A DNA stretch of 64,000 nt from Octopus vulgaris (Eukaryota), in assembly GCA_951406725.2 (NCBI GenBank), contig OX597831.1, positions 13,020,001 through 13,084,000 on the forward strand, in the 5' to 3' direction. Of the stretch, positions 1-51,833 are shown piece after piece. Position numbers and translations under genes: made by a program. Within the stretch, counting starts at the first letter, position 1, and each line of letters starts with the position of its first letter. The notes beneath the pieces were generated by a model. It was not told the DNA's origin. It was given only the letters and a program-made list of their open reading frames with translations, and did not search any database.

Positions 1-34
1 TTTACATTTCGAGCCTACGCTCTTCTACAGAAAG
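1..34 (-). ncRNA. Variant/degenerate minimal type I hammerhead ribozyme (cut by window edge)
   Basis: Minus strand reads CTTT-CTGTAGA-A-GAGC-GTAG-GCTC-GAAA-T-GTA-AA. Same layout as the motif at 50524-50558 but with A6->U. Confidence 0.6.
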
Positions 35-429
35 GAGCACAGAAAGAAACAAGGGGAGGAAAAAATGTGTGTAGTGGCTACCGATCTATCATGGCGACTG
101 ATGTATGCATACGCATGAACCCAACTTTTTGTACCGTTCTTGTAACTCACAGTGTTTGTGTTTTCGCCTATGCTGCTGCCATCGTGGTAGTTGTTGTTGT
201 CCATTGTTGTTAGTCTTGTTGTTGATATTGTTGCGGCCGTCTTTGAAGTCACCGCATGTGTGTTTGTGTATGTATATGGGTTCGCTTCCTATTTTATTTG
301 GACCCATACCTTTATACAATTTTTTTTTGTCTTTAATTTCTTCTTTTATATTTATCATAGGTAAGTGCATATATGTCTATTGTATATGCATTACGTTGTT
401 TGTATCTGAGTTTTTTCTCACTTCAGTCT

Positions 430-911
430 TTAGTCGTCATGTTGTGTGGTGTGGTGGTGGGTTTTATTGTTCCATTCGTGTTTCCTGTTGAGGCTCGATA
501 TGTCTATTGCTATGTGTGTAGTTCCTGTGATCTAAGTGTTGTTTTAGTTCGATGCGTTGATAATACTTTGACCTCTATGCTATTGACTGAGCCTCTACGT
601 TCTGCTTGAGCATGTTGATAGAGCACTGACGAACCTTTCTCTTCTTTGAGCTCTCGCCAGTCTTCACCTATGCGTTCTCTTATGTTGCGCGCTGTCTCGC
701 CAAGGTGAGCAATTGTTATGCTTCTGCACCGTCCCTCAGTACATCGTAAGTTATACACTATATTCCTAACCATACAGTTAACCTGTGGCTTTATCCTACA
801 TACAATACAATTATTCTCCGTACACAGGGACCCATCGAAGGGATAAGTTCTACAAATCAGGGATTTTATAGTGACACCAGGCCTTTCTACCACTTTAATA
901 CGTAGATTGGC

Positions 912-912
<1 letters not shown>
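430..912 (-). pseudogene. PLE GIY-YIG endonuclease fragment with Cys-rich linker, frameshifted
   Basis: KANLRIKVVERPG..C-x4-C-x2-C..NIVYNLRC..C..HLGETARNIRERIGEDW..VLYQH. After a frameshift near 525 it continues ..THIAIDISSLNRKHEW..*. Homologous to 46943-47221. Confidence 0.85.
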
Positions 913-942
<30 letters not shown>

Positions 943-5592: not shown

Positions 5593-5629
5593 TATATATA
5601 TATATATATATATATCGTATTTTAAATTT

Positions 5630-5980
5630 TATTTTTAATTCCATTCCAATGTTTATGTGAAACTCCTTACCAACATAAAATACTATCTACTAATATTTAC
5701 TTCATTCATTATAATATTATTTTCAATTACAGATTTTAAATTTTAAATTTACAGATTTTAGATTTTAAAAATCATCATTATCCTTACTATTAATTCGTAG
5801 TAAGGATAATGATGATAATCTAAATTTTTTAAATCTAAAATCTGTAATTGAAAATGATATTATAATGAATGAAGTAAATATTAGTAGATAGTATTTTATG
5901 TTGGTAAGGCGTTAATTGGTAGGATTTGAACTAGGATAGCTAACTTCACATAAACATTGGAATGGAATTAAAAAAAAAAT
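5630..5980. repeat. Imperfect fold-back inverted repeat (~160-180-bp arms)
   Basis: Centre ATCATCATTATCCTTACTA-TTAATTCG-TAGTAAGGATAATGATGAT; outer arms TAATTCCATTCCAATGTTTATGTGAA / TTCACATAAACATTGGAATGGAATTA; indels between arms. Confidence 0.9.
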
Positions 5981-7120: not shown

Positions 7121-7356
7121 AATTAATAATTAAGGGTGCTCCAAGTGACACCAGCACGCTAAGAATAGCAGCCAGAAGTCGACTACAACCACTGATCCCC
7201 CGCAATTCATTTCGTTATTGGTACGGCGGCTTAGAATTTCTGCTCATTCCCCCGATTTCAATTAATGTGGGTCAGTGGAAATGTGTGGTTGTAGCCGTCA
7301 CGTGACTGCAATATTTAGCGTGCTGGCGCCACATGTAGCACTCTTAATGATTAATT
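7121..7356. repeat. Diverged fold-back (~70-bp arms)
   Basis: AATTAATAATTAAGGGTGCT..CCAGCACGCTAA..CTACAACCAC versus GTGGTTGTAG..TTAGCGTGCTGG..AGCACTCTTAATGATTAATT. Confidence 0.75.
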
Positions 7357-12512: not shown

Positions 12513-12542
<30 letters not shown>

Positions 12543-12544
<2 letters not shown>

Positions 12545-12617
12545 CGAAAGAAGGTTTGAAAATGCAATTTTAAAAGATGTTTATTTAAAATTACATTTTC
12601 AAACCTTCTTTCGTATA
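12543..12617. repeat. Short fold-back between (TA)n runs
   Basis: TACGAAAGAAGGTTTGAAAATGCAATTTTAAA / TTTAAAATTACATTTTCAAACCTTCTTTCGTA. One arm recurs at ~46128-46160. Confidence 0.9.
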
Positions 12618-12654
12618 TAATTCCACTCGTGCGGTACCCTATAACTCCAATTTG

Positions 12655-19968: not shown

Positions 19969-20186
19969 TGCATTTCAATAATTTGCTTACGCATAACGAT
20001 ACTAATAACCTGCTATTAGAACTCAAAATACGGATGCCTCAGAGGAAAACATTAATCGAGTTCACAGCGTAATAAGAGATTATATAAATGACAAGGGAAC
20101 CAGGAATAATAAACATTCGTTACGCTAATGAAGCTCATTACATAATTACTTGTTCCCTTGCCAGTTATATAATCTCTTATATATTC

Positions 20187-20841: not shown

Positions 20842-21056
20842 AAATTACTATAAAGAGCTAAGCCCAATATAATACCGCAAAGAAAAACATTTTATCGTCC
20901 CTAATTATGACTAGGGGTGGGTGCCGAAGCACCTATATTGCAAAAAATAAGTATTTAACTCTTATTACTTGCAATATAGGTGCCTCAGTCACAGTTAGTG
21001 ATGATAAAAAATTTCCTTTATGGTATTATATTGCGCTTAGTTATTTATAGCAAATT
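20842..21056. repeat. Diverged fold-back (~100-bp arms)
   Basis: CTATAAA..CTAAGCCCAATATAATACC..GCACCTATATTGCAA / TTGCAATATAGGTGC..GGTATTATATTGCGCTTAG..TTTATAG. Confidence 0.85.
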
Positions 21057-35817: not shown

Positions 35818-35877
<60 letters not shown>

Positions 35878-36395
35878 TAGGGAATGGGGCAGATAAAACA
35901 TAGGCTACATATGTTTCATAGCTTGCGGAACCTGGCAATTAAGAAATTATTCAAACGAGGAGTCGACCGCAACCTACTCTTCAGCCCAAGGAGGCCTTGA
36001 TTGTTTTAAGTCAACACGGGGTCTTCTAGCGACAACGTAAACTTCATATAATCAAGGTACCCTTGGCCTGAAGGGTACCTTGTTGTCTACCCCTAGTTTG
36101 GACAATTTATTACTTCAGAGGTTCCTTTAGTTACGAAACAGATGTAGCCTGGATTTTGTCTTCTCCATTCCCTAATTTTTGAGCATTCATTCGCATACAC
36201 AACCCCCGTTGCTTAGCGCGAACTGTAAAATTAACTTTTTCAGCTTATCGGACTTCGATACGAGAAAAATTCACAACCTTCTGTGCCACAATAAACCATT
36301 ATTGTTCCTGAAAGTTCTTCTACGGATTGCTTGAAGGTCACTAACTTATACCCTTAATCCTTACACACACACACACACACACATACACATACACG

Positions 36396-46114: not shown

Positions 46115-46433
46115 GTCTGTCTAAATCTTTTAAAATTGCATTTTCAAACCTACTTTCATATATATATATAATCATTAATTAATAAATCTTAGGGTAGCAA
46201 AAAAAAAATTTAGAAAAATTCTTTGCTACCAGAGGTCTAGCGTGAAGGAAAAATTAGTCAAAAATTAGGCCTTTCACGATAGCCTTAAAGGCATACATAC
46301 ATACATATATATATTTTATATATTTCGGAATGGTCATTTTGCCAGTTTAGCCAATAAAAACACACGCACTATATATTTGGTGTTATTTTGCTTCAGTGTT
46401 ATTTATTTTTTACATTAATCTTAATCTTATTTC

Positions 46434-46477
46434 GGCCAGAGTTCTTTCGTCACACTCCTGTGACCGCATCAGTGGTC
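46434..46477 (-). ncRNA. Hammerhead-like motif with CUGAUGC core (mirror copy at 47341-47384, + strand, CUGGUGC)
   Basis: GACCA-CTGATGC-G-GTCACA-GGAG-TGTGAC-GAAAG-AA-CTC-TGGCC. Confidence 0.7.
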
Positions 46478-46822
46478 CTTTGTTTTCTTCTTTCTTACTT
46501 GTGTCTCTCCTTACTAACCGTCAGCCATTTTGTATTTCTATTGTATGTCTTCATTTGCGCATGCTTATATCTCTATGTGCGTTTATGTTTATTTAGTGTG
46601 TGTATGTGGGGGGATGCCTGTAATATTTGTATCTTCTGTTTATATATGTTCATGTAATTTGTAATTTTATATGTTCATGTAATTTGTATTTTGTTTTTGT
46701 TGTTTTTGTTTATTCTTATTTAGTTCATGTGTTTACATCCACTTATTATTATCATTACATATGCTTGTATGTATGTATGTATAACAACAATGCTAGTAAT
46801 AACAATAATAAATTGAATCGAA

Positions 46823-46855
<33 letters not shown>

Positions 46856-46942
46856 ATATATATATACATATATATATATAGTTATTTATTTCTATTAGTT
46901 TATTTATCTGTGTATTTATTATGTTTTCAGGATCCTCTATCG

Positions 46943-47221
46943 TCATATGTTGTGGTGTGTGTTAGTGCTCCATTTTAGTTTTCTATTCAGGCTAGGTATA
47001 TTTTCTATTATGTGTGTAGCTTCTGTAATTTGTCTAATTGTTGCATCTAATCTATGTGTGGATAATATTTTAATTTCTATGTTACTGATTGACCCCCCTC
47101 CGTGTTCTTGTTCGGCGTGTTGGTACAGAATCGATGAGCTTTTACCTTCCTTGAGTTGTCTCCAATGCTCATTTACCCGCTCTCCTATGCTTCTTGCCGT
47201 TTCCCCTGCGTATGTCGTTGT
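46943..47221 (-). pseudogene. PLE GIY-YIG endonuclease C-terminal fragment (open frame, no start; absent from the ORF track)
   Basis: Manual translation TTTYAGETARSIGERVNEHWRQLKEGKSSSILYQHAEQEHGGGSISNIEIKILSTHRLDATIRQITEATHIIENIPSLNRKLKWSTNTHHNI* retains YxGET, R, EH, H, E and P.LN motifs. Confidence 0.9.
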
Positions 47222-47559
47222 CTAAATAAACATAAACGCACATAGAGATATAAGCATGCGCAAATGAAGACATACAATAGAAATACAAAATGGCTGACGG
47301 TTAGTAAGGAGAGACACAAATAAGAAAGAAGAAAACAAAGGACCACTGGTGCGGTCACAGGAGTGTGACGAAAGAACTCTGGCCGAAATATGATTAAGAT
47401 TAATGTAAAAAATAAATAACACTGAAGCAAAATAACACCAAATATATAGTGCGTGTGTTTTTATTGGCTAAACTGGCAAAATGACCATTCCGAAATATAA
47501 CAATATCTGTTTCAACACACGACTTCACATAAAAAATCTTGCACAACAAATATTTAAAC

Positions 47560-47604
<45 letters not shown>

Positions 47605-50523: not shown

Positions 50524-50558
50524 GTTTCTGAAGAAGAGCGTTGCTCGAAACGTTAAAC
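50524..50558 (+). ncRNA. Minimal hammerhead ribozyme in a ~180-bp cassette (50472-50653) inserted in (TA)n
   Basis: GTTT-CTGAAGA-A-GAGC-GTT-GCTC-GAAAC-GTT-AAAC. Stem III is reduced to palindromic ACGT, so it is only formable as a dimer. Confidence 0.75.
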
Positions 50559-51833
50559 CATCGTCCTTTCTTTGCGTCTGCTAATACTTTACATGTACCA
50601 CGTCCTCGCGTTGTTTTGCTTGTGTTTTCTCATCTTCTTTTTGGGGATTTACTATATATATATATATATATATAGGTGCAGGCATAGCTGTGTGGCAAAA
50701 AGTTTGCTTTCCGACCGTATGACTCTGGGTTCTGTCTCATAATGTGTCACCTTGGGCAAATGTCTTCTACCTTAGATCGATCAAGGTGTTGAGAGTGGAT
50801 TTGGAAGAAATTGAAAGAATATTGCCGTGTATAAAAACATATATATATATACACACATACAAAAAAAAAACATATATATATGTATAAACACACTCACGTA
50901 TACACTCACATATTGATATGCCTATAAACATACTGGCGGGAGAGCAAACGAGTGTGTTGTGACTGAGTATATCGCACACTGTTATTACAGTTTTCTTTTT
51001 ATTTTATAAAAGCTCTCCTTAAGTTGGCGATGAAAAACAAGGGTCGAATATTCCGATCTCACCACAAGATACAACCCTGGCCTTTACACCTGTGAGAGCC
51101 CTCCGATTTTGTCTTGGTGCAGTTTTGCAATGGTTGTCAAATTTGCCTTAAATCGTCGCTTATCGTATGACAGAACAAAACACAAAATGAACACATTGGC
51201 TGAGGTACGCTATACTATAATAGCTGCCATATTTACTCCGAATTATAACTTAGCATCCTAAAAACAAAAGAAGTCAATGGATAATGTAGTCCTAAATAAA
51301 TTATGTCTGAAAATAAATATGCTCTGAATTTTGTAGATTAAGGTCAGCCTTGATCGGTAAAGTTTCTGGCCAATTAGGGCGCCGATCTTGGTTAAGCAAG
51401 AAACAATAGTAACAATAACAACGACACTTCCATCTGAAATAGAAACCATCGAAGCTGCCATAAAGAATTCCAATTTATTTACATAATCTTTCCGTTGAAT
51501 TCACATCTATTCCAGTGCTTTCAAAATGTCCGTAAAAGTTTCAGCAATACACACGGACAGACCACACTGCCACACACACACACACATATATCGGAATAAT
51601 CACATAAACAAATGTCGATATTTTGAATCTATTTAATATGTACGTTTCGAATACTTAAGTAAGTTATACTTTACGTAATATTATCCTCGACACTTGACAG
51701 TTCAATATATGAAGGCATGCATAAATGTGTTCTATATATGATAGCTATTTATTGCGTTATAGAAAACCCTCCAAAATACAAAGAAAGATACGGAAAAGTA
51801 CATGGAGAGAAAAAAGGAAGGTATCTATCTATC

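Follow-up and report, generated by a model that had tools for sequence, protein, structure and literature searches.

The window analysed here, a 64,000-nt stretch of Octopus vulgaris DNA, contains two traces of Penelope-like elements (PLEs), one of them an inverted insertion with an altered hammerhead motif in each arm. The relevant features are the following:

260-914, minus strand: remnant of a sister PLE family of greater age (61% aa identity at 451-914; PLE proteins match 426-914)
46311..47562, no strand assigned: the entire insertion, in which two 5'-truncated copies of the 3' end of the element stand head to head within a (TA)n tract
46311..47223, minus strand: copy 1, with endonuclease stub, 3' UTR, pLTR and short 3' end (+19 to +26 from ATG)
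46434..46478, minus strand: hammerhead of arm 1, minimal type I, core CUGAUGC plus an extra G, C9 at 46466
46943..47221, minus strand: C-terminal 92 codons and stop of the RT-EN ORF, a non-coding stub
47222..47562, plus strand: copy 2, inverted and tail-bearing, pLTR from -259 to a long 3' end (+82)
47249-47254, plus strand: TATA-like hexamer
47277-47287, plus strand: region -204..-194, where 5' junctions of the family pile up, predicted transcript start
47340..47384, plus strand: hammerhead of arm 2, with C9 (47352) and a private A6G (47349)
47481..47562, plus strand: first 27 ORF codons, including the tail of about 60 nt, 100% identical to the N-terminus of the full-length protein

The inverted arms (46319-46596 and 47222-47499) differ at 3 positions over 278 nt, in line with the 99% identity given by the initial annotation, and the inverted, 5'-truncated Penelope-like layout proposed there is indeed present at 46311..47562. 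The range it gave, 46319..47499, covers the arms and falls short of the full extent, because arm 2 extends 63 nt beyond the inverted repeat into the ORF start and the insertion thus reaches 47562. The left end is blurred, lying somewhere from 46311 to 46319; both ends are within (TA)n, and no target-site duplication is discernible at the insertion. The GIY-YIG frame is open as described (46946-47221, minus strand, 92 codons, 89% identity to the C-terminus of the full-length family ORF), and on its own it gives no Pfam family match. Of the GIY-YIG motif the stub retains the second half, the first being absent; it also keeps the two His of CCHH and has 5 residue changes private to it. The open frame had been read as a sign of youth, a reading undone by these private changes and by the finding that 35/40 long tblastn matches to the family are open too. 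The insertion is fairly recent, as had been claimed, and it belongs to subfamily SF3 (see below) and not to the youngest one. Taken alone, the window locus is a dead and ordinary representative of an already known class.

The family was collected from the 2.8-Gb genome (G000) by an exact search for a 34-nt core pattern with position 9 left free. The motif is not a chance occurrence, since the pattern has 3095 exact matches and its reversed control 0. At locus L031 a full unit has an intact 1309-aa ORF between direct pLTRs, with two further copies before it, one truncated and in tandem, the other inverted. In Pfam the ORF matches RVT_1 (E 3.6e-4) and, at its C-terminus, GIY-YIG (E 4.5e-4), both below the curated cut-offs; it contains the motifs DVVSLYP, YVDDI and VVYSI..YVGET, and the protein has 391 homologs, the closest record (99%) being labelled Octopus vulgaris. 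Upstream of the RT, aa 250-520 form an Asn-rich low-complexity insert (32% N). A single ORF with RT and then a C-terminal GIY-YIG, partial-tandem pLTRs, inverted 5'-truncated copies and a tail, found at L031 and reflected in the bimodal 3' ends of the family, are the features of EN+ PLEs and bear out the Penelope-like identity first assigned. The linker before GIY-YIG (CTDNYCTVC at aa 1183, CX4CxxC), together with (TA)n at most 3' ends, agrees with the CX2-5CxxC linker and microsatellite targets of Neptune. This type of linker also occurs in Nematis, and the element, judged from its sequence, fits an EN+ PLE of Neptune or Nematis type (PMC8557442). It resembles the elements described there in its single ORF with RT followed by GIY-YIG, linker, CCHH-type motif, partial-tandem pLTRs, inverted 5'-truncated copy and (TA)n targets, and differs in its tail (about 60 nt versus 30-40 nt) and in its C9 hammerhead. 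Non-LTR retrozymes consist of tandem units a few hundred nt long that code for nothing and each contain a type I hammerhead; the element is not one of them, as its motif belongs to the pLTR of a 4.6-kb unit with an ORF.

The hammerhead of both arms reads GGACCA-CUG(A/G)UGC-G-GUCACA-GGAG-UGUGAC-GAAA-GAAC-UC-UGGCC, with G at core position 6 in arm 2, so that the C9 and the extra G before a 6-bp stem II with a GGAG tetraloop, recognized by the initial annotation, are found in each. In the ViennaRNA fold stem I has 5 bp with one bulge and stem II has 6 bp; the two stems, the G10.1-C11.1 pair and the additional base that follows position 9 are those of PLE minimal type I hammerheads, and in arm 1 the predicted cut lies between 46439 and 46438. 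The canonical core CUGANGA...GAAA...UH is present in the oldest subfamily (SF1) and in the sister family; in both arms and in 92% of the exact matches it is broken by C9, and in arm 2 also by G at position 6. Helix III is not palindromic, the AGAACU self-duplex having two A-A mismatches and +1.4 kcal/mol in all four subfamilies, as sampled or represented here, unlike the AGAUUU of the sister family, which pairs in the dimer. The stem I sequence also differs between the two families, with pairing possible in both. The motif went undetected by Rfam, which gave 0 matches on 46330-46600 and, for the whole window, microsatellite-driven miRNA matches only among the 150 of 381 matches listed; a PDB sequence search gave no significant match. 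Mispairing of C9 with G12 was considered as a cause of inactivity and discarded, as it is not predicted (P of the C9-G12 pair 0.08 or less). In hammerheads, A9 takes the place of the L-anchor adenine. An L-anchor adenine holds the general-base G through a sugar/Hoogsteen pair, and in the hairpin ribozyme C is the base least tolerated there (PMC6961537). The PLE minimal type I hammerheads described in PMC4209133 share the short stem I, longer stem II, G10.1-C11.1, vestigial helix III, NUH and pLTR location, and an additional base between 9 and 10.1 is among their described traits; their consensus is CUGANGAH, and U17 is common. Here, instead, C9 stands for A9, the extra base is G for the consensus H, and helix III is non-palindromic. 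In the PLE alignment of that work all 44 rows examined have A9, which its search descriptor required, and the extra base is G in 1/44. No CUGAUGC hammerhead and no measured A9C rate is reported in the literature covered, that outside subscription journals.

C is the family state at position 9, as the initial annotation had suspected: position 9 is C in 2846 of the 3095 exact core matches and another base in 249, and the family consensus is not CUGAUGA. Among the first 100 of these 249 matches listed there are 66 A, 34 T and 0 G, counted by eye. Exact core matching favours young copies. When copies were recognized by their flanks alone, with a flank that excludes the youngest subfamily, the first 100 of 1714 had 71 C, 24 A and 5 T, again by eye. 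In four runs labelled organisms A-D, C is also the majority, with A9 at about 18, 16, 13 and 7% of depth, rough values from contigs. A non-random sample of 118 copies (125 covering the region, minus tandem and segmental duplicates) falls into four subfamilies. SF1 has A9 in 16/17 (mean divergence 3.1%), while C9 is found in 10/13 of SF2 (3.4%), in 62/65 of SF3 (1.5%), which holds the window locus, and in 22/23 of SF4 (0.6%, median 0.0), the youngest, which also carries U17; SF2-SF4 pooled have C9 in 94/101. The calibration given in PMC13282606 (a distance of 0.09 for 25 My) would put the age of SF3 at about 3 My. As outgroup served the sister family, with 772 candidates and copies 77-85% alike, whose pLTR core is CUGA(A/G)GA plus G with an identical stem II and a different stem I, and which has A9 in 23/30 rows (about six rows lack the pLTR). 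Because both the oldest subfamily and the sister family carry A9, A9 is ancestral and C9 derived. Thus the claim that A9->C predates the duplication of the arms stands, C9 being present in both arms and in the family majority; its derivation from A9 within the lineage had been missed. The SF4 copies, with 1294 exact 45-nt copies of the C9+U17 form, their divergence and the intact L031 ORF show that the lineage kept amplifying after C9 arose. The novelty at the family level is that A9C, a derived core change, has become fixed in a lineage which is still amplifying.

The 5' junctions of truncated copies bear on how the motif is used. A pattern catching truncations from -124 to -90 gave 372 matches, of which 70 were scored by script (the first 30 loci and 40 from the next listed matches, skipping indel-looking ones), yielding 63 true junctions. 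Three of them lie exactly at the predicted cut (-101) and nine within -103..-101, against 5.4 expected (p=0.09). A pile-up is likewise lacking in SF1, the A9-era copies (1/8 junctions at the cut), so that this comparison does not separate A9 from C9. Further upstream, a pattern for -222..-181 gave 428 matches, and 73 scored ones comprised 71 junctions: 10 upstream of -204 (0.56 per nt), 37 within -204..-194 (3.4 per nt, p=3e-6) and 24 below -194. In several insertions both arms end at -200 to -205, and the TATA-like hexamer lies about 30 nt upstream of the peak. We infer that transcription begins near -204..-200; part of the -204..-194 peak may come from A-rich microhomology. Beside the TATA-like box, the motif GCATGCGCA (pLTR -229..-219, window about 47252-47262) is kept in both families and resembles what we take to be an NRF1-type site. 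Since junctions pile up behind a TATA-like box and not at the cut, the templates were likely copied with the hammerhead uncut, with the proviso that a cut-and-religated circular template leaves the same DNA record as an uncut one. Uncut templates agree with the results described in PMC11167929, where hammerhead (HHR) mutations left PLE insertion in vitro unaffected and none of the RNA ends lay at the cut. The Penelope promoter of D. virilis is described as TATA-less (PMC2377424).

The 3' ends of the family are bimodal, falling at +19..32 and +68..90 from ATG (modes +26 and +82), and inverted pairs combine one of each in 119/121 classifiable cases. In particular, a first set of 70 pairs had 63 classifiable ones, all long+short (63/63, two being duplicates of others), and a second set of 62 had 56 long+short, 1 long+long, 1 short+short and 4 unclassifiable; the long+long exception is a three-part insertion. 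The window locus obeys the same pairing, arm 1 being short and arm 2 long. Among solo copies 30 had a short and 28 a long end, and 5 lay at a locus edge; in 2 more the end was short and accompanied by a minute inverted piece with a long end. Hidden inverted remnants were rejected as a general rule for solo copies, having been seen in 2/60. The arms of one insertion nearly always belong to the same subfamily, and only the old duplicated locus L069-L072 differs at diagnostic sites. In about six inverted pairs a rare change of the extra G to A is present in both arms (e.g. G000:C1:68330139/68332273), suggesting a shared template or arm-to-arm conversion.

Such near-strict long+short pairing suggests twin priming from two fixed RNA sites. 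In the twin priming of LINE-1, two target strands prime two cDNAs whose joining by microhomology gives an inversion, the internal position at which the second primer lands being variable and the resulting parts free of overlap. In the present family, by contrast, the starting points of both cDNAs are fixed, with about 60 nt between them, and the region copied is the same. The GIY-YIG of the element would nick both strands of a (TA)n target; with one nicked strand as primer, cDNA synthesis would then start near +82 of the RNA, with the other near +20 to +26, and both cDNAs would run back through the uncut hammerhead, halt at variable points and be joined head-to-head via short microhomology. 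As the cut is 120-180 nt upstream of both start sites, copies longer than 120-180 nt need an uncut or re-ligated template, and a weak ribozyme would therefore cost nothing and might help. A close parallel is PAc/Poseidon of Anolis (PMC11167929), for which two internal RT start sites within the ORF start, defining the tail, are shown in vitro, and which is also alike in its AT-rich targets, in the extension of both strands and in an HHR cut without corresponding ends; it differs in its canonical core with demonstrated protein-assisted cleavage, and in the present family 119/121 inverted insertions draw once on each of the two sites. Pen2/Pen2a of Adineta vaga (PMC3846280) are alike in inverted pLTRs with the tail on one and in an Asn-rich ORF insert. 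For them the tail is described as optional and self-priming is proposed, whereas the near-obligate long+short pairing found here favours two target-primed cDNAs. A one-sided tail was thus already known and termed optional (PMC3846280, PMC8557442); the quantified long+short end rule is new, and it constrains how PLEs build inverted insertions.

The role of the hammerhead in PLEs, as a processing device or a passenger, is described as open (PMC8557442, PMC11167929), and HHR-less Naiads proliferate (PMC8557442). In the present family the sequence evidence leans towards C9 not cleaving, and we consider it probable, with due reserve, that the ribozyme is weakened and dispensable: C9 is predicted to cut poorly and is likely unneeded for copying, in a lineage that swapped A9 of its hammerhead for C and then went on multiplying. 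How far the motif is constrained can be gauged at two depths. Between the C9 family and the sister, core plus stem II are identical at 29/34 positions and the adjacent flanks at 52-64%. Since SF1, the hammerhead has changed at 2 of 45 nt and the whole at 21 of 344, so that no extra constraint is seen within the family. After C9, one of 15 fixed changes (C17U) lies inside the hammerhead, where about 2 are expected, and it obeys the NUH rule; with this single, tolerated change the power is low, and constraint may have continued. A weak hint of a return to A comes from C9>A in the young background, with 34 matches (15/18 sampled loci not SF1), about 2-fold over the strand-symmetric control G>T, which accounts for 12 among the first 100 of 106 matches listed.

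It seems doubtful, by the same data, that C9 is a functional core variant in which the extra G or the bound RT-EN protein positions G12, the RNA being cut and then religated, or cut late in the cycle, with the motif under selection. The other core letters and both stems do persist through three later subfamilies, the sole later fixed change keeps NUH, PLE hammerheads are described as slow and protein-assisted (PMC11167929, PMC4209133) and natural core variants of low activity exist, none of those examined in PMC3088659 being at position 9. Yet conservation since SF1 does not exceed that of the flanks, the cut site has no junction pile-up, the step at -204 points to templates with an intact 5' hammerhead, helix III is non-palindromic, and A9 is invariant in the 44 alignment rows mentioned above, selected as they were for A9. 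A stricter claim is correspondingly unlikely, namely that C9 and the extra G form an active hammerhead whose core is re-registered or completed by protein, which would make this the first natural family without the adenine anchoring the general base. If true, such a core would be fixed in a live retroelement, in thousands of copies invisible to CUGANGA-based searches, and other PLEs called ribozyme-less may hide similar ones. A non-catalytic job of the motif, as 5'-UTR structure, protein binding site or promoter-proximal element and already so at the A9 stage, would make the stems matter and the core letters not. It draws on the position of the motif, with the inferred transcript start about 60 nt upstream and the ATG 100 nt downstream, on a stem II (and not stem I) identical between families about 39% apart in protein, and on A9-era copies without cut-defined ends; we regard it as quite improbable, given that the unpaired core CUGANGA...GAAA is conserved between both families, which suggests that the motif was catalytic in their ancestor at least. 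A weakened, dispensable ribozyme remains our preferred reading. An A9-then-C9 lineage with one element, an intact ORF and a very recent burst is a natural matched pair, which makes the role of the hammerhead testable with natural sequences, and either outcome would be useful: a new active core, or an element thriving with a crippled ribozyme.

The A6G of arm 2, for which the initial annotation had suggested, as a speculation, A-to-I editing, would most likely be an ordinary mutation that arose after insertion. Genome-wide, the C9 background has 24 position-6 variants, tandem duplicates included, of which 11 are G, 6 T and 7 C, and A6G occurs in about 0.4% of copies. There is no strand asymmetry, as A>G on the sense strand (73/12947, 0.56%) is comparable to T>C (27/6068, 0.44%; p=0.33), and arm 2 has a single A>G. 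All this makes editing of the template RNA very improbable, even considering one copy that favours it (L023/L163, G000:C8:106632821-106633098, minus strand), which has A6G and A-90T in common with arm 2 and six changes from the subfamily majority, all at adenosines and 4 of them A>G; an edited template or a shared source is possible for that copy. A spreading G6 sub-lineage was also rejected, a second change being common to only 2/11 G6 copies.

Beyond the two PLE loci, the window contains other fold-backs and one further ribozyme:

950-1214: near-perfect 265-nt palindrome, a dispersed repeat without similarity to the PLE
5626-5980: fold-back or terminal-inverted-repeat element, no credible PLE similarity
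7121-7356: the same
12539-12619: the same
20072-20180: the same
20842-21056: the same
35877-36175: the same
About 50524-50562, plus strand: canonical minimal hammerhead CUGAAGA-A-GAGC-GUU-GCUC-GAAA-CG-UU with a 4-bp stem I, in a different repeat

A single mechanism had been proposed for the fold-backs and ribozymes of the window, and it finds no support, since they have no credible sequence in common with the element: the best match of the other fold-backs is 20 nt long (E 0.006), and matches of PLE proteins in the window are confined to 426-914 and the 46311..47562 locus. The 950-1214 palindrome has matches of 84-91% in L014, L165-L169 and L178, often beside PLE copies or (TA)n, and sequence similar to the hammerhead at 50524-50562 is present in six fetched loci.
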